From: an uncultured Clostridia bacterium
GTDB taxonomy: Bacteria > Bacillota > Clostridia > TANB77 > CAG-508
DNA length: 64,000 nt
Assembly (NCBI GenBank): GCA_947630185.1
Contig: CANRGT010000009.1
Location: 4,996 to 68,995, forward strand
Direction of reading: 5' to 3'
Shown here: piece by piece, positions 4,167-51,463 of the stretch
Layout of the letters: each line of letters opens with the position of its first letter
Position numbering within the stretch: position 1 is the first letter of the stretch
Program-made: the position numbers and the translations under genes
Notes under the pieces: model-generated
Database searches by the model: none
What the model was told of the DNA's origin: nothing
The model's input: only the letters and a program-made list of their open reading frames with translations

Positions 4167-4240
<74 letters not shown>

Positions 4241-4377: not shown

Positions 4378-5203
4378 ATGAACTTTTTATTAAATTATTG
4401 TAAAGGTATTTTAATTGGTGCTGGTGCTATTTTACCTGGTATTAGTAGTGGTGTATTTTGTGTGATTTTCGGCATCTACGAAAAATTAGTAAATAGTGTT
4501 TTAAATATATTTAAAGATTTTAAGAAAAATTTTATCTTTCTTTTGCCTTTTTTTCTTGGTGCACTTACTGGTATTTTTTTAGTTGGAAAATTGCTTAATT
4601 TTCTATTTACTTTTTATCCGATGCCAACTAAATTTTGTTTTATTGGTCTAATTATTGGTAGCATACCTGTTTTGTGTAAAAGAGCTAATAATTCTAAAGG
4701 TTTTCGCCTTCATTACCTTATATTTTTAGCTTTTGCTTTTTTGATTGGACTTTTATCTATTGGGCTTGAAAAGTTTTTATCACAATCGCTTAACATGACT
4801 CTAGTCAGTAGTAATTTAAATAATAACTTTTTGTATTTCATTTTATCTGGGTTTATTATGTCTGTTGGAATTGTTATTCCGGGCATCAGTAGTAGTGTTA
4901 TTTTAATGTGCCTAGGTGTATATTCTATTTATTTAAATGCTATTTCTAGTGTAAATATTGCAGTTTTATTTCCTATGGCAATTGGATTAGTTATTGGCTC
5001 TATTATTTTTTTAAAGGCTATCCAATTTTTATTTGCTAACTATTATTCACATACTTTTTATATGATTATTGGTTTTGTGTTAGGTTCAGTTTTGGTTATC
5101 TATCCTCGGATTCAGTTTTAATTTAGAAGGATTAATTTCACTTCTATTACTTGCTTTAGGCTTTTTTGTTGGATTAAAATTTGAAAACTTAGAAACTAAT
5201 TAA
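4378..5203 (+). CDS. DUF368 membrane protein (PopT-type polyprenyl-phosphate transporter family); frame interrupted at zero-frame CGG 5107-5109
   Basis: Contains two PGISS(G/S) motifs typical of DUF368. The zero frame stops 3 codons after CGG. The +1 frame (GGA at 5108) continues GFSFNLEGLISLLLLALGFFVGLKFENLETN, a final TM helix, to TAA at 5201-5203. Confidence 0.75.
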
Positions 5204-8554: not shown

Positions 8555-10378
8555 TTATTCAGATACTGTTCTTCTTGCCATTCTTTCTCTTGTTTTATTA
8601 TCTAATATTTTCTTTCTTAAACGAATATTTTTTGGTGTTACTTCTACTAACTCATCTTCTGCTATAAATTCTATGGCTTTTTCTAATGACATTTGAACTG
8701 GTGGTACTAAACGAAGGGCATCATCTGAGCCAGATGCTCTTGTATTTGTTAAGTGTTTTTCTTTACATACATTTATTGAAATATCTTCGTTTCTAGAGTT
8801 AATTCCTACTATCATTCCTTCATATACTTCAACACCTGCACCAATTAAAAGCTCTCCTCTTTCTTGTGCATTGTATAAACCATAAGTGATAGATGTTCCT
8901 TGCTCAAATGCAACAAGTACCCCCCTAGTTCTTGCTTGAATTTCACCTTTGTATGGTTCATACCCTTCAAATACGCTGTTCATTGTTCCTTCACCTTTTG
9001 TATCTGTTAAGAACTCTGTACGGTAACCAATTAAACCTCTTGCTGGGATTTTAAATTCTACTTTTGTATGTCCTGCCTCTGCTGGCTCCATATTAATCAT
9101 TTCAGCTTTTCTTCTTCCTAATTTTTCAATTACATTTCCTATGCAGTCATCTGGAACATTTACAACTAATCTTTCTATTGGCTCTGATTTTACGCCATCT
9201 ATTTCTTTTATAATAACTTTTGGACGAGATACTAAAAGTTCAAATCCTTCTCTTCTCATTGTCTCAATTAAAACTGATAAATGAAGTTCTCCACGTCCAC
9301 ATACTTCAAAGCTATCAGGAGAATCTGTTTCTTTTACACGTAAACTTACATTTCTCTCTAATTCTTTGAATAATCTATCTCTAATATGTCTTGAAGTAAC
9401 AAATTGTCCTTCTTTTCCTGCAAATGGACCATTATTAACACTAAATGTCATTGATACTGTTGGCTCGTCAATGTCTACAAAGTCTATTTTTTCTGGATTA
9501 TTACTATCGCAAATTGTTTCACCTATGTTAATATCTGGTATACCAGAAACGCAAACAATATCTCCTGCACCTACTTCTTCTACTTCTGTTCTTTTTAAGC
9601 CTTGGTAAGTAAATAGTTTTGCAATTTTTCCTTGTGTTACCTTATCATCCTTTTTGCAAATAGCTACATTCATTCCAGCTTTTATTGTTCCACGCTCAAC
9701 TCTACCTACTGCTATTCTACCTAAGTAATCATCATAATCTATGTTCGATACTAGCATTTGCATAGTTCCTTCTGTATCACATTTTGGTGCTTGAATGGTG
9801 TCAATTATTGTATCAAAAATACAAGTTACATTGTCACTTTCGTCTTCTAAATGCATTTTAGCAATTCCGTTTTTTGCAGATGCATATATAACTGGAAAAT
9901 CTAATTGCTCGTCATTTGCATTTAATTCTATAAATAATTCTAATACTTGGTCTACTACTTTTAATGGATTTGCACCTGGTCTATCTATTTTGTTTATAAC
10001 AACTATTGGTTTTAAGTTAAGTGCTAAAGATTTTTTAAGCACTTCTCTTGTTTGTGGCATTGGTCCTTCAAAAGCATCAACTAATAAAAGTACACCATCT
10101 ACCATTTTAAGTACACGCTCTACTTCTCCACCAAAATCAGCGTGACCTGGTGTATCTACTATATTTATTTTAATTCCGTTATACATAACAGATGTATTTT
10201 TAGCTAAGATGGTAATTCCTCTTTCTTTTTCAATATCACCTGAATCCATAACTCTTTCAGCTACTTGTTCATTATCTCTAAATACATGACTTTGTTTTAA
10301 AAGACCATCAACTAATGTTGTTTTTCCATGGTCTACGTGTGCAATTATTGCAATATTTCTTATATTTTGATTATTCAT
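8555..10378 (-). CDS. typA: translational GTPase TypA/BipA
   Basis: Begins MNNQNIRNIAIIAHVDHGKTTLVD... and is 607 aa. SD AGAGGAAG lies upstream of ATG 10378. The 45-codon extension in the ORF track reads through the GC-rich repeat and is not coding. Confidence 0.95.
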   Translation of the reverse strand: MNNQNIRNIAIIAHVDHGKTTLVDGLLKQSHVFRDNEQVAERVMDSGDIEKERGITILAKNTSVMYNGIKINIVDTPGHADFGGEVERVLKMVDGVLLLVDAFEGPMPQTREVLKKSLALNLKPIVVINKIDRPGANPLKVVDQVLELFIELNANDEQLDFPVIYASAKNGIAKMHLEDESDNVTCIFDTIIDTIQAPKCDTEGTMQMLVSNIDYDDYLGRIAVGRVERGTIKAGMNVAICKKDDKVTQGKIAKLFTYQGLKRTEVEEVGAGDIVCVSGIPDINIGETICDSNNPEKIDFVDIDEPTVSMTFSVNNGPFAGKEGQFVTSRHIRDRLFKELERNVSLRVKETDSPDSFEVCGRGELHLSVLIETMRREGFELLVSRPKVIIKEIDGVKSEPIERLVVNVPDDCIGNVIEKLGRRKAEMINMEPAEAGHTKVEFKIPARGLIGYRTEFLTDTKGEGTMNSVFEGYEPYKGEIQARTRGVLVAFEQGTSITYGLYNAQERGELLIGAGVEVYEGMIVGINSRNEDISINVCKEKHLTNTRASGSDDALRLVPPVQMSLEKAIEFIAEDELVEVTPKNIRLRKKILDNKTRERMARRTVSE

Positions 10379-10410
10379 TTTTGCTTCCTCTTTTCTATTT
10401 TTTCTAAAAG

Positions 10411-10547
10411 TATAATATATCACAATAATGAACAATATAATTTTTGCGCCATGTCGCGCAGCGTTCAAGCGAAGCGCGTTTGGAGCAACATTTATGCCCA
10501 GACAGCAAGACATAAGAAAAAATTATATTGTTCATTTATATTATATT
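10411..10547 (+). repeat. GC-rich-core hairpin element, copy R1 (short variant)
   Basis: An 18-bp perfect arm ATGAACAATATAATTTTT (10428-10445) pairs with AAAAATTATATTGTTCAT (10518-10535). The arms flank the core GCGCAGCGTTCAAGCGAAGCGCGTTTGGAGCAAC...GACAGCAAG. Confidence 0.7.
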
Positions 10548-10571
10548 TAATAACAACATTACTATTATACT

Positions 10572-11159
10572 TTATATTTCTTCGTTTGTCAACATAATTA
10601 TATTGTCCATAATCTCTTTACTTACCTTGTCTAATAGCTCTTTTTCTGGCTTGTTTGTTTTATATTCACTAAAATCTAATGGCTTTCCATAATTTAATTT
10701 TATTTTATGAAATGGCTTTAATGTTCCTTGTACACCTACTGGTATTACAGGCACTCCTGTTCTTAGTGCCATGAAAGCTGCACCATTTTGTGCTCTTCCA
10801 TTTTTGCTCAAACCATTTCTAGTTCCTTCTGGAAATATTACTAGAATTTGTCCATCTTTTAGGATTTTTAAAGCAAATTTCATGGATTCTAAGTCCATTT
10901 TTCCTCTTTTTACTGGGAAAACGCAACATTTTTTTGCAAACCATTTTATAAGATTATTTTTAAATAGTTCTTCTTTTGCCATTACATATGTAAGCCTTTT
11001 AGTTGATGAAACTAAGATTGGTGGATCCCAGTTTGATCTATGGTTTGCACAAATAATATATGCTCCTTCTTTTTTTATATTTTCTTCTCCCACTTTTTTT
11101 ACTCTAAATACAATTAGGCAAAATAAATGTACAAAGAAAATTGCTACTTTTCTAATCAT
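10572..11159 (-). CDS. plsC: 1-acyl-sn-glycerol-3-phosphate acyltransferase
   Basis: 195 aa with the NHRSNWD (HX4D) and FPEGTR motifs. Confidence 0.85.
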   Translation of the reverse strand: MIRKVAIFFVHLFCLIVFRVKKVGEENIKKEGAYIICANHRSNWDPPILVSSTKRLTYVMAKEELFKNNLIKWFAKKCCVFPVKRGKMDLESMKFALKILKDGQILVIFPEGTRNGLSKNGRAQNGAAFMALRTGVPVIPVGVQGTLKPFHKIKLNYGKPLDFSEYKTNKPEKELLDKVSKEIMDNIIMLTNEEI

Positions 11160-26020: not shown

Positions 26021-26058
26021 AGAGAAGGGTATTTCAATATTGAAATACCTTTCTTTAT
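26021..26058. terminator. bidirectional terminator between convergent genes
   Basis: Perfect palindrome GGTATTTCAATATTGAAATACC (26028-26049), with an A-rich stretch on the left and a T-rich stretch on the right. Confidence 0.65.
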
Positions 26059-29388: not shown

Positions 29389-29402
29389 ATTATTAATAAA
29401 AT

Positions 29403-29557
29403 AAAAAGTAGTGACTTTAAAGCAGTACCGCGCAGCGTCCAAACGGAACGAAGTGAAGTGCGCTTGGAGCAACCAACATACTATGTAATAAATTGTATTT
29501 ATACAATTTATTACATAAGAGGTTGTGACAGCAAGGTACGCGTAAAGTCACTATTTT
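29403..29557 (+). repeat. GC-rich-core hairpin element, copy R3
   Basis: Outer stem TAGTGACTTTA/TAAAGTCACTA, inner stem GTACC/GGTAC. Core is GCGCAGCGTCCAAACGGAACGAAGTGAAGTGCGCTTGGAGCAACC. Apical hairpin is ATGTAATAAATTGTAT/ATACAATTTATTACAT. Confidence 0.75.
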
Positions 29558-29584
29558 TATTATATAATTATAATTAATTAGTAA

Positions 29585-30402: not shown

Positions 30403-31905
30403 TTAGCTTATTTTAATTTTAAATTTTTGAAGATTAATAGATGCAAGTGGTATAAGTGCTACTATGTAAGGAATAATATACCTTGATTTTGCCTCCCACA
30501 ATATATGAAATGTAAAGCCACCTATAAAAATGGTAACTAAAAGTATAATTTCTAAAGAAATGTTTTTTCTATTTTGTACCAAAGCAATTATACTACATGC
30601 ACACATAAGTATAAGTAATGCTTTTTGATAAAAAGTTAGTGGTTCAATTGCATCTTCTAATGGGTCGTCTGCTACTGATGTATTATTTCTTATTGCAGAA
30701 TATGTATTTTCAGCCCACATTGAAGTTATCTTGTCAGTATAAAACTTAAAAGTGTAACCTATGTTTTTCGAAAAATAAATCAATCTCTCCTTTATTTTTT
30801 CATTGTATTCTTCTTTTTTACCTTCTAAGTTTGATAAAGCCGAAGCTCCTATCTCCCATTTGTACCATCCATTTGCTCTTTCTCCTTCTTCCATTCCCAT
30901 TAATACATATCCGTTCATTGGATAAGACTTATTTTTGTCCAAATTATATTTATCTAAATAATAGTTTTTTACAAAATATGATGGTACTATACAAATTATT
31001 ATATATAACACAATTACAGCAATTTTTATTAATTTTTCATTTAACTTAATGGTATTTATTTCTTTAAATAGATTTAATAATAAATATATTACTATCGCAA
31101 TAATAAATATTAAACTGTTCATTTTAAACATATATGCTATCATAGATAAAATGCTAGCTAATATTGCATATATTGTTTTTTGGGTTTCTGTATAACGCAT
31201 TACAAAATATACTGAAAATAAGCATAGTGGTATACTTGCAATATCTCCATATACAAAGTTTGCCATCATAATTAATGAGATAAAAGTAAATATTAGTACT
31301 AGCATTAGTGAATTGTTCATTTCATATTTTTTAGATAGCTGTTTATTTATTTTATATAATGCTATTACAGTTAATACATTCGCTATGATATTTATTATTC
31401 TTAATTTTTCTAATACATCTAATTTAATTATTTTAAAAAATATGTTAAATAAAAAAGCTAGTGGAATTTGATGTTGATGAGCTTGTACATATTTATCTAC
31501 TGTGACTTCCGCATAAGTCATTATCTTAAATGACCTTTCTGGATCATTATTATAAAATGTTTGTGCTAATTTTGAAGTATATTCTTGATCACCTACAATT
31601 GGTGGATTTATTTTCATTATCCAAAATATGTTAAAAGCTAAATAAATGGCAATACAAGTTATAAATAAAATTTTTCTTATTTTCTCTTTTATTTTTGAAT
31701 CTGTACTATTATATAAATATCTATTTATTATTCTTGTTACTAAAAATAGTACTATTCCTACTATTATAAGCCCTAATACATACACAAAGCTATTTAAAGA
31801 AATGGTTATGTGTTCTGCAACATCTAGGTCTGCAGTATATATTATATTTAAAATAAGTACCACACTTAAAAATATTATTCCAAGACTAAATATTATTTTT
31901 TTCAT
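30403..31905 (-). CDS. GT-C-like polytopic membrane glycosyltransferase, paralogue 4 (most divergent)
   Basis: 500 aa with about 12 TM segments and the same overall architecture as the other three. Assignment is by topology and context. Confidence 0.45.
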   Translation of the reverse strand: MKKIIFSLGIIFLSVVLILNIIYTADLDVAEHITISLNSFVYVLGLIIVGIVLFLVTRIINRYLYNSTDSKIKEKIRKILFITCIAIYLAFNIFWIMKINPPIVGDQEYTSKLAQTFYNNDPERSFKIMTYAEVTVDKYVQAHQHQIPLAFLFNIFFKIIKLDVLEKLRIINIIANVLTVIALYKINKQLSKKYEMNNSLMLVLIFTFISLIMMANFVYGDIASIPLCLFSVYFVMRYTETQKTIYAILASILSMIAYMFKMNSLIFIIAIVIYLLLNLFKEINTIKLNEKLIKIAVIVLYIIICIVPSYFVKNYYLDKYNLDKNKSYPMNGYVLMGMEEGERANGWYKWEIGASALSNLEGKKEEYNEKIKERLIYFSKNIGYTFKFYTDKITSMWAENTYSAIRNNTSVADDPLEDAIEPLTFYQKALLILMCACSIIALVQNRKNISLEIILLVTIFIGGFTFHILWEAKSRYIIPYIVALIPLASINLQKFKIKIS

Positions 31906-33206: not shown

Positions 33207-33328
33207 TTTTGTTATTCCTTTCTAATTTTCTAACAACATCTATTATACTATGTTAAAAATTTTTTTGCAACTTTTATAATACAATTAATAAAAGTTTAAT
33301 AATTTATATTATTGCTTAAATTTATTAT

Positions 33329-33464
33329 TGCTGAAAAGTATTATAGTTTTTGCACCTTGCCCACGCAACCTTCAAATATAATAGATTGTAGGTTGCTCCA
33401 AGCGCACTTCGCTTACGCTTCGTTTGAACGCTACGCGGTGCTACAAACTATAATACTTTTCAGC
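33329..33464 (-). repeat. GC-rich-core hairpin element, copy R2 (inverted orientation)
   Basis: Perfect 20-bp arms GCTGAAAAGTATTATAGTTT/AAACTATAATACTTTTCAGC. The reverse complement carries GCACCGCGTAGCGTTCAAACGAAGCGTAAGCGAAGTGCGCTTGGAGCAACC...GGTTGCGTGGGCAAGGTGC. Confidence 0.75.
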
Positions 33465-36473: not shown

Positions 36474-36493
36474 TAAAAGCGTCATTGGAAATG

Positions 36494-36569
36494 GGCGCAT
36501 AGCTCAGCTGGGAGAGCATCTGCCTTACAAGCAGGAGGTCATAGGTTCGAGCCCTATTGCGCCCACCAT
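36494..36569 (+). tRNA. tRNA-Val (anticodon UAC), CCA encoded
   Basis: GGGCGCATAGCTCAGCTGGGAGAGCATCTGCCTTACAAGCAGGAGGTCATAGGTTCGAGCCCTATTGCGCCCACCA folds as a cloverleaf. Anticodon loop is CUUACAA. Confidence 0.95.
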
Positions 36570-36627
36570 TTTCAAAAATATTTAGATTTGCTAAATATTT
36601 TTTTATTTAAAAATAATTTTTATTTTT

Positions 36628-36704
36628 GGCCTGGTAGTTCAGTTGGTTAGAACGCTAGCCTGTCACGCTAGAGGTCGACGGTTCGAGCCCGTTCCAGGTC
36701 GCCA
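36628..36704 (+). tRNA. tRNA-Asp (anticodon GUC), CCA encoded
   Basis: GGCCTGGTAGTTCAGTTGGTTAGAACGCTAGCCTGTCACGCTAGAGGTCGACGGTTCGAGCCCGTTCCAGGTCGCCA. Anticodon loop is CUGUCAC. Confidence 0.95.
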
Positions 36705-36728
36705 TTTTTTTATTTACATATATAATAT

Positions 36729-36804
<76 letters not shown>

Positions 36805-42550: not shown

Positions 42551-42717
42551 GCTAAAAATATTATGTTTTGTAAGTACCGCGTAGCGTTCAAACGAAGCGT
42601 AAGCGAAGTGCGCTTGGAGCAACCAACATACAAGTAGTAATAAATTGTTAAGTATTAACAATTTATTACATAATATGGTTGCGACAACAAGGTACTAAAA
42701 AACATAATATTTTTAGC
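42551..42717 (+). repeat. GC-rich-core hairpin element, copy R4 (longest, archetype)
   Basis: Perfect 19-bp arms GCTAAAAATATTATGTTTT/AAAACATAATATTTTTAGC, stem GTACC/GGTAC. Core is GCGTAGCGTTCAAACGAAGCGTAAGCGAAGTGCGCTTGGAGCAACC. Apical hairpin is GTAATAAATTGTTAA/TTAACAATTTATTAC. Right side is GGTTGCGACAACAAG. Confidence 0.75.
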
Positions 42718-48254: not shown

Positions 48255-48435
48255 CTTGAATTTCTAAGTTGTTTTATTATTTTATTTTTCAAAAATATAT
48301 TATGTAAAAATTTTAAAGCTAAAAAAGTTTTAGTTTATTATAAAAATATTTTTAAGTTTAAGAAGGACAGCTTCCTTTTTCCTATTTTATTCATATAATT
48401 TTAATGAATAAAAGAGAAAAAAGGAAGTGTTTTTA

Positions 48436-51371: not shown

Positions 51372-51457
51372 ATAGGAAATGGAAGCCACAAAAGTGGTTC
51401 GCCAGATTTAGATAAAAAAACACATCTAAAATGGGCAAATTACAGATGTGTTTTTTT
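51372..51457 (+). ncRNA. about 85-nt sRNA or orphan leader (copy A of the AUAGGAAAUG module)
   Basis: AUAGGAAAUGGAAGCCACAAAAGUGGUUCGCCAGAUUUAGAUAAAAAAACACAUCUAAAAUGGGCAAAUUACAGAUGUG plus U7. Collinear with copy B (2620->2530). No ORF lies downstream because the next gene is convergent. Confidence 0.5.
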
Positions 51458-51463
51458 ATTATA

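Follow-up and report, generated by a model that had tools for sequence, protein, structure and literature searches.

The window analysed here is a stretch of 64,000 nucleotides (nt) from an uncultured Clostridia bacterium (GenBank assembly GCA_947630185.1, contig CANRGT010000009.1, positions 4,996 to 68,995 of the forward strand), and the element studied is a nested palindromic repeat with a GC-rich, asymmetric core, of which the window holds four copies (R1 to R4). R4 lies between the stop of the transketolase C-subunit gene (42722) and the next gene; by precomputed Pfam assignments its neighbours are the gene for the transketolase C-terminal subunit and an ABC ATPase gene (PF00005) adjoining an FtsX-domain gene. 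By the same assignments R1 follows a plsC-like acyltransferase gene and precedes bipA, R2 lies between convergent PMT_2 (GT-C) and DUF218 (SanA-like) genes, and R3 follows pnp, with a GT2 gene next. The parts of R4 and the positions of the other copies are as follows.

42551-42717, + strand: R4, the whole palindromic element; core strand antisense to both flanking genes
42551-42569, + strand: R4 outer 5' arm, AT-rich, partner of 42699-42717
42574-42578, + strand: R4 stem a, 5' side, GTACC, partner of G42691 plus 42692-42695
42579-42623, + strand: 5' part of the asymmetric, GC-rich core of R4, GCG[Y]AGCGT[Y]CAA[R]CG followed by pentamer repeats and CG[Y]TTGGAGCAAC
42624-42677, + strand: R4 apical AT-rich palindrome, a module variable in length and sequence
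42678-42691, + strand: R4 3' core, GTTGCGACA[R]CAAG, whose R partners the Y of the 5' core
42699-42717, + strand: R4 outer 3' arm, partner of 42551-42569
10405-10552, + strand: R1, short-type and partly decayed, an exact 148-nt present/absent unit
29400-29561, + strand: R2, between convergent genes, absent in the related genomes bin83 and bin51
33330-33464, - strand: R3, after pnp, core strand sense to the genes

An initial annotation, made from the letters of the window alone, had reported these four copies, their gene contexts and a core of about 60% GC in DNA of about 27% GC, and all three reports hold: each of two core patterns has exactly four matches in the 64 kb (0.13 and 0.00 expected from shuffles), the neighbouring genes are as it described, and the 5' core measures 56-62% GC against 27.4% for the window. 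No fifth copy was found in the window by nhmmer with a profile of the core of all copies, and an independent repeat search of the window recovered the outer arms of R1, R3 and R4 together with the apical palindrome of R2.

Copies are 113-185 nt long, and all are built as nested palindromes. The outermost layer, an AT-rich stem of about 17-25 bp, encloses a small conserved internal loop (G-TA opposite AA) and then the 5-bp stem a; inside stem a lie the asymmetric core and a CAAC/GTTG stem closing an apical module, which among copies may be as small as a loop of 5 nt or as large as a perfect, AT-rich palindrome of 55 nt. The core (GC-rich, roughly 60-75 nt) is conserved and the ends of the element vary in sequence. 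Its consensus across copies is that listed above for R4, with one to four pentamer-like repeats within the 5' part; these look like AAACG GAACG AAGTG AAGTG, with a small extra hairpin in some copies, and in R4 they read AAGCG TAAGCG AAGTG, the R4 5' core also holding a small hairpin CGTYC/GRA(N)CG. The nested stems proposed in the initial annotation are real, but the labels of two copies had been exchanged: GTACC/GGTAC belongs to the copies that it placed at 29403 and 42551 (R2 and R4) and GCACC/GGTGC to the one at 33329 (R3). Likewise GCGCA is found in the copies at 10411 and 29403 (R1 and R2) and GCGTA in those at 33329 and 42551 (R3 and R4), and the CAACC/GGTTG stem described for all copies is present in general but broken in R1, which has GCCC in place of GTTG.

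Arm types, pentamer variants, apical variants and the Y/R state occur in mosaic combinations among copies. No arm or apical motif was found outside the elements in about 250 kb, and this confinement indicates that arms, core and apex make up one composite element. In a divergent copy (L026) the core is kept and the arms are unrelated in sequence. The short-type copies (L006, L008, L011, L015 at 5029-5079, L009 and, in the window, R1 at 10482-10540) carry GGAG, 7 or 8 nt, an ATG and an open reading frame (ORF) of 17-30 codons (MLRQQ...). A coding role for this small ORF was rejected, as in long-type copies the ATG is lost or stands immediately before a stop.

A scan of about 185,000 species, one genome per species, with an exact gapped core pattern (which diverged relatives escape) gave 20 matches, all in two genomes (13 and 7). 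Both are metagenome-assembled genomes (MAGs) from rabbit gut labelled 'uncultured Clostridia bacterium' (bin83, the CANRCF01 assembly, and bin51, GCA_947632035.1). A looser pattern added one true divergent copy from JGI metagenomes (L026, on a contig of 30% GC); a wider distribution was rejected, six of the seven metagenome pattern matches being chance occurrences in high-GC DNA. The window represents a third member of the bin83/bin51 species complex, and a fourth lineage (E50) was found via protein look-ups; the lineages differ by 2-6% in conserved genes and by up to 14% in glycosylation genes, in a mosaic pattern. In all, 26 copies were assembled from these four close rabbit-gut Clostridia lineages and one metagenome contig, one of them added by nhmmer, and the 22-26 copies used in the statistics below are not independent of one another. 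No match to the family was obtained in plasmids, phages or viral contigs; Rfam gave only tRNAs at gathering score across the 64 kb and only chance-level matches at E<=10 for three copies on both strands. Known ribozymes, riboswitches and other RNAs were rejected on this ground, and by eye there is no hammerhead core (CUGANGA...GAAA) on either strand. The family, which the initial annotation had been unable to recognise, is thus undescribed, and it is known from a few closely related rabbit-gut Clostridia.

Metagenome assemblies tend to break inside these elements. Both ends of contig L030 correspond to window positions 29471 and 33387, L031 also breaks inside an element, and L033-L037 end within the R2 apical palindrome; the breakpoint is in the conserved core for SPAdes contigs and in the apical palindrome for Logan contigs. 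In practice, therefore, the repeats are one reason why MAGs of this clade are fragmented.

Comparison of close lineages showed the element to be present or absent at orthologous sites. At the R1 site the spacer between the acyltransferase gene and bipA measures 45 nt in four bin51-like genomes; the window species has 193 nt there, owing to an extra block of exactly 148 nt (10405-10552, wider than the hairpin marked in the initial annotation), with identical flanks, unambiguous boundaries and a 0-bp target duplication; it sits in the short spacer upstream of bipA, after a -10-like box. At the R2 site the spacer is 4 nt in bin83 and 11 nt in bin51 against 196 nt in the window; the extra DNA relative to bin51 reaches about 29584, and because an imperfect repeat of 8-11 nt can be drawn in the AT-rich flanks, the site is ambiguous as to target duplication. 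Neither a hairpin nor an arm remnant was found in the empty R1 and R2 alleles. This shows that the AT-rich outer stem is part of the inserted unit and that insertion was not into pre-existing terminators. The suggestion of a small mobile element made in the initial annotation is thus borne out at these two sites, but its more specific proposal, a MITE (miniature inverted-repeat transposable element) targeting terminator loops, is not supported by the same empty alleles, whose spacers are only 45, 11 and 4 nt.

Loss of most of an element has also left solo arms. At a site between MBOAT and DHHW genes bin51 retains only AACAATATAGTAATTTCCAT, a 3' arm with element-specific bases, and at a site between DisA and peptidyl-prolyl isomerase (PPIase) genes lineage E50 retains only ATGAAAAATAGTGGCTTTTC, again a 3' arm with such bases; genome comparison shows that in both alleles the 5' arm and core hairpin are missing and that the missing segment is bounded by 3-5 nt microhomologies, which also fit replication slippage. 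A derivation of the outer arms from the target was rejected, given that arm types are common to unrelated loci, that empty sites lack a hairpin and that a solo arm carries element-specific bases.

Two of these sites have further peculiarities. In the DisA-PPIase spacer (L053/L054 2348-2500 compared with L055 and L004) the window species lacks both the solo arm and a further 30 nt that the other two lineages have, keeping only ATGAAAAAA of the arm; this allele may be the site in its original empty state or the product of a second deletion, larger than the first. At R1, the native flanking sequence (window 10553-10580 and 10596-10613), which is present in the empty alleles too, holds AAAGTATAATA, an 11-nt inverted match to the far end of the R1 insertion (R1 ends 10405-10420 and 10427-10445), and the 3' coding sequence of the plsC-like gene holds AATTATATTGTCCATAAT, a 16/18 match to an R1 arm. 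These flank matches could be chance in AT-rich DNA, insertion microhomology or the remnant of a larger palindrome.

At five orthologous sites, between lineages 2-14% apart, the element was found inverted in place with unchanged flanks (R4 against L013; R3 and L001 against L017; L059 against L019; L007 against L014; L005 against L010). The R4 orthologue in bin83 (L013 5847-6027) is 95.6% identical and inverted relative to its flanks, and the R3 orthologues have the same orientation in bin83 and the opposite one in bin51. L001 and L017 are 100% identical apart from orientation, and an arm mismatch 15 nt from the end flips together with the core in this pair, which argues that essentially the whole unit was inverted. 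Assembly artefact is an unlikely source of the flips: the arms (about 20-28 bp) are shorter than usual k-mers and reads, and independent assemblies of one lineage agree on element orientation. Among strains with at least 99.7% identity, R1-R3 do not differ in orientation. At the junction of R3 with its flank (window 33314-33345, in gene order ...TTTTCAGC AATAATAAATTTAAGC AATAATATAAATT) there is a 16-nt tandem duplication, in which the element end TTTAAGC together with flank AATAATAAA occurs two times; the window and bin83 have it (L001, core sense) and bin51 lacks it (L017, element flipped), and it may be the footprint of a flip or of a re-insertion.

Copies also exchange sequence with each other (conversion), as is shown by the variant GTTGCGTGGGCAAG, which two copies at different loci share in the window species; their orthologues in other lineages carry GTTGCGACAACAAG.

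The type of pairing bears on whether the element is maintained as DNA or as RNA. Over all copies the outer stems contain 696 Watson-Crick pairs, 5 G.T and 4 A.C, despite large differences between copies, and the apical stems contain 352 Watson-Crick pairs and 5 G.T; between the orthologous R3 and L001 the arms differ by compensated double changes. In AT-rich stems compensation at the RNA level is expected to leave many G.U pairs, and on one strand only. Wobble that is rare and strand-symmetric is instead the mark of DNA inverted repeats copying each other. The two strands exceed shuffles in folding to an equal degree, whether folded as DNA or RNA (z -6.6 to -7.6).

Mutual information highlights the stem-a pairs, the apical closing pair and the pair formed by the core Y and the 3'-core R, and across copies stem a shows four Watson-Crick pair types at one position. 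In 22 copies trimmed to 77 columns, the helix composed of stem a, a G-C pair and the Y-R pair is 98.7% paired with two-sided changes at five of its seven pairs, a covariation reached by none of 500 shuffles, and slid controls are about 30% paired. The stems thus covary, as the initial annotation had proposed to check, but one helix that it proposed, GCGYA/UGCGC, changes on one side only, and the Y (in GCG[Y]AGCG) covaries instead with the R (in GACA[R]CAAG), as C-G in 11 copies, T-A in 11 and T-G in one. Its argument that a G-U pair reveals the RNA orientation falls with this, since Y-R pairs are Watson-Crick on either strand. The bulge hairpin CGTYC/GRA(N)CG is 97.3% paired (UA 12, UG 6, CG 3); a competing helix, CAARCG/CGYTTG, was rejected as worse, at 90% paired with 13 A.C cells. 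The core folds as a three-way junction in some single-stranded state, made up of the CGTYC/GRA(N)CG hairpin, of stem a with its added G-C and Y-R pairs, and of the CAAC/GTTG stem with the variable palindrome as its cap.

Taken with the gains, losses and flips, the pairing suggests that the element lives and evolves as DNA, and the evidence fits selfish DNA better than an RNA gene or a terminator. We consider that this is probably a lineage-restricted, non-coding, non-autonomous palindromic mobile DNA repeat, closest in behaviour to the REPINs and MITEs of other bacteria. Replication template switching between the inverted arms would account for the flips, for the compensated double changes and for arms that are Watson-Crick paired almost without exception. 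Template switching leaves the dispersal of the element and the conservation of its core (L026 included) unexplained, and we infer that the core, with its pentamer repeats, is kept as the recognition site of a putative trans-acting protein on folded single-stranded DNA. This protein would move the element, the asymmetric losses suggesting an enzyme of HUH/Y1 type, and any effect on neighbouring genes, for example as a hairpin in the 3' untranslated region (UTR), would be a by-product.

Several observations weigh against this interpretation. No gene for a transposase, recombinase or invertase was found in the window between 4 and 57 kb, where precomputed Pfam gives only housekeeping genes, nor was a transposase found among 20 genes flanking copies in two MAGs, 19 of which have housekeeping-type Pfam domains and one of which has no Pfam match (the domains include MecA, GidB, DisA, cyclophilin, PgsA, DnaE, release factor, RecA and PBP). 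A phmmer and jackhmmer search with E. coli RayT through sampled, partly redundant DNA (about 0.5 Mb; 1,518 ORFs) gave no RAYT transposase, the query being distant and the sensitivity low. The hallmarks of a MITE are missing, the ends being the least conserved part and no target duplication being seen. Only one gain/loss site (R1) has clean boundaries, and there the change may be a gain or a loss; the flips and losses are inferred from consensus assemblies; and the lineages are a recombining mosaic species complex, in which parsimony is weak. Lastly, the core helices depart from Watson-Crick pairing on the core strand by seven G.T and no A.C, as a transcript or same-strand single-stranded DNA would show.

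A bolder version of a mobile DNA, to which we give a low probability, is that this is a new kind of hairpin-borne mobile DNA in Firmicutes, whose enzyme reads an internal, asymmetric three-way junction with iteron-like pentamers and not the ends. The moving intermediate would then be the core hairpin plus the 5' arm, a solo 3' arm would be left at the donor, and the second arm would be re-templated at each move or flip. If true, this mechanism alone would explain why the ends vary yet pair perfectly, why target duplication is missing, why flip/flop is frequent and where the solo arms come from, and it would imply an undescribed HUH-type or structure-specific enzyme in these gut bacteria.

It is unlikely, in our view, that the family is primarily a structured RNA, with the core acting as a cis element in 3' UTRs (a stabiliser, processing site or terminator) or as a small RNA and with spread being secondary. 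Such a role would account for the conserved unpaired bases and covarying helices of the core, for core-helix wobble confined to the core strand (UG 6 at one pair and UG 1 at another), for the core strand being about 6 kcal/mol more stable as RNA than its complement and for the position of every copy directly after a gene end. Against these stand the lack of an Rfam match, the near absence of G.U from about 1,050 stem pairs, A.C being equally rare in outer stems, and the orientation of the copies: of 18 copies in tandem contexts, 13 have the core strand antisense to the genes (two counts combined; not significant) and orientation flips at the five orthologous sites between close lineages. The orientation-dependent RNA role envisaged in the initial annotation is hard to reconcile with those inversions and with stems almost free of G.U. 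The core strand lies on the purine-poor strand in 20 of 26 copies, which is not significant once orthologues and flips are considered. No terminator-like site was called at any copy, the T run lying inside the outer stem, and no conserved promoter is visible inside the element; R1 moreover lies upstream of bipA after the -10-like box, where a strong terminator would harm. An intrinsic terminator, which should have a GC-rich stem directly before a U tract and pre-exist at the gene end, was rejected for the lack of such calls, the place of the T run and the empty alleles, in which no hairpin is seen. Together the evidence weakens a role of the core as structured RNA. Ordinary-looking bidirectional terminator hairpins do occur in the window at other gene ends (51412-51459, 26023-26054 and 48371-48427; e.g. 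ATAAAAAAACACATCT...AGATGTGTTTTTTTAT); these are unrelated to the repeat family and show how native terminators look in this genome.

It is improbable that the element is an invertible switch, in which the arms would be invertase sites and flipping of the core would toggle expression or termination of the neighbours (phase variation). A segment between inverted repeats in both orientations, as in an inverton, is what was found between lineages at the five sites, including the otherwise identical L001 and L017, and several independent assemblies break inside elements; breaks are expected at repeats and palindromes anyway, and template switching gives flips without an enzyme (PMC8604942). Orientation at R1-R3 does not vary among the strains at least 99.7% identical, arm sequences differ among copies so that there is no common recombinase site at the inversion boundaries, and neither an invertase gene near the copies (in the same window interval and 20 flanking genes) nor a conserved internal promoter was seen.

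A host-domesticated site, with core and pentamers proposed to bind a host protein (at a Chi-type recombination hotspot, or a nucleoid or replication protein), is in our view also improbable. In its favour the core is kept even where the arms are replaced (L026), short direct repeats are present and copies adjoin the housekeeping genes recA, dnaE, prfA, disA, pnp and tkt; a further lead is that the Chi sites of Firmicutes are short words rich in GC, for example AGCGG and GAAGCGG. Against it, free gain, loss and flipping of copies is seen between close lineages, the copies are few and very narrowly distributed, and the orientation bias (13:5) is not significant.

Elsewhere in the window, a 500-amino-acid (aa) PMT_2 (GT-C glycosyltransferase) gene at 30403-31905 (- strand) separates the DUF218 and GT2 genes in the window species, whereas bin83, bin51 and E50 lack it there, and the glycosylation genes around it are the most diverged part of the region (86-95% identity against 98% in pnp). 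The bipA gene (window about 8555-10377) is split into two ORFs (159 and 433 aa) in one window-species assembly (L040 10782-12540) and is a single 607-aa ORF in the remaining assemblies, e.g. L043 7278-9101; the split probably reflects an assembly error or a frameshift, just downstream of R1. Three clustered tRNA genes lie at 36493-36801 (+ strand) and one further tRNA gene at 4170-4240 (- strand).

Small palindromic repeats are among the least understood bacterial mobile DNAs, and the worked examples known to us are almost all from Proteobacteria, pneumococci and Neisseria. In the family described here, whose hosts are uncultured gut Clostridia of low GC content, the usual layout is turned round, with a conserved interior and free ends. 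Its species complex (2-14% diverged) records gain, asymmetric loss, in-place inversion and copy-to-copy conversion, and it thus offers a test case of how far template switching alone can maintain and flip hairpins, and of whether single-stranded DNA transposition of the REPIN kind extends outside its known hosts. There is also a practical side, in that the elements break metagenome assemblies and their covarying stems invite misreading as structured RNAs.

Among known systems, two were set aside. The IS200/IS605-derived palindrome-associated transposable elements (PATEs), which have separate subterminal hairpins at their left and right ends, insert 3' of a fixed tetra- or pentanucleotide and go with a Y1 TnpA, share with R1 the lack of a target duplication; assignment to them was rejected, the element having a single nested palindrome, no common target word from two sites and no TnpA found in the sampled DNA of about 0.5 Mb. 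An integron attC site was rejected likewise, since CAAC/GTTG is internal here and attC has its R''/R' core sites at the hairpin base, GAGCAAC/GTTGCGA only partly fits RYYYAAC...GTTRRRY and the copies are dispersed among housekeeping genes, unlike attC sites in cassette arrays beside intI. The terminal hairpins of parvoviruses such as adeno-associated virus (AAV) are branched palindromes with an asymmetric interior and flip/flop isomers, in which direct repeats form the protein-binding element. By analogy only, our element resembles them in having an asymmetric interior in two inverted-complement forms and short direct repeats adjoining the hairpin; unlike these telomeres of a linear single-stranded DNA virus, with their Rep nickase, it occupies internal chromosomal sites and no Rep gene is known for it.

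When a polymerase switches template between short inverted repeats, the arms become homogenised and the spacer inverted (PMC8604942); such switching can also create and maintain hairpins (PMC8794818). At quasi-palindromes it predicts both signatures seen here, perfectly complementary arms and spacer inversion; it is, though, a mutational process and not an element family.

MITEs have terminal inverted repeats shared with an insertion sequence (IS) and target-site duplications (reviewed in PMC10969869). A classical MITE was rejected on account of at least four arm types, differing ends and an internal conserved part, and again unlike MITEs the element has one clean junction without duplication (R1, 0 bp), and no parent IS was found in the window between 4 and 57 kb or among 20 genes flanking copies. 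It is like bacterial MITEs and related repeats (Correia, RUP, BOX, SPRITE, ERIC, RPE) in being small, non-coding, intergenic, foldable and strain-polymorphic, often co-transcribed at gene ends and, as with BOX, modular.

REPINs are doublets of repetitive extragenic palindromic (REP) sequences that form extragenic hairpins and are mobilised by RAYT transposases (PMC3116915, PMC3337134), with compensatory changes and an asymmetric excision that yields a hairpin with a 5' single-stranded tail (PMC3116915). By definition our element is not a REPIN, as its conserved part is internal and single: REPINs have two conserved inverted REP ends and a freer spacer, whereas here the ends vary around one conserved asymmetric core. 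Furthermore our element lacks the conserved 5' GTAG-type REP, the DNA sampled gave no RAYT, the hosts are low-GC Clostridia and not Proteobacteria, and copies number in tens, not hundreds. In behaviour the two are alike, both being extragenic, multi-copy hairpins of about 100-150 nt with compensatory changes on both sides, without the classical signature of terminal repeats plus target duplication, and with an asymmetric loss in which the hairpin and 5' arm are gone and part of the 3' end is left.

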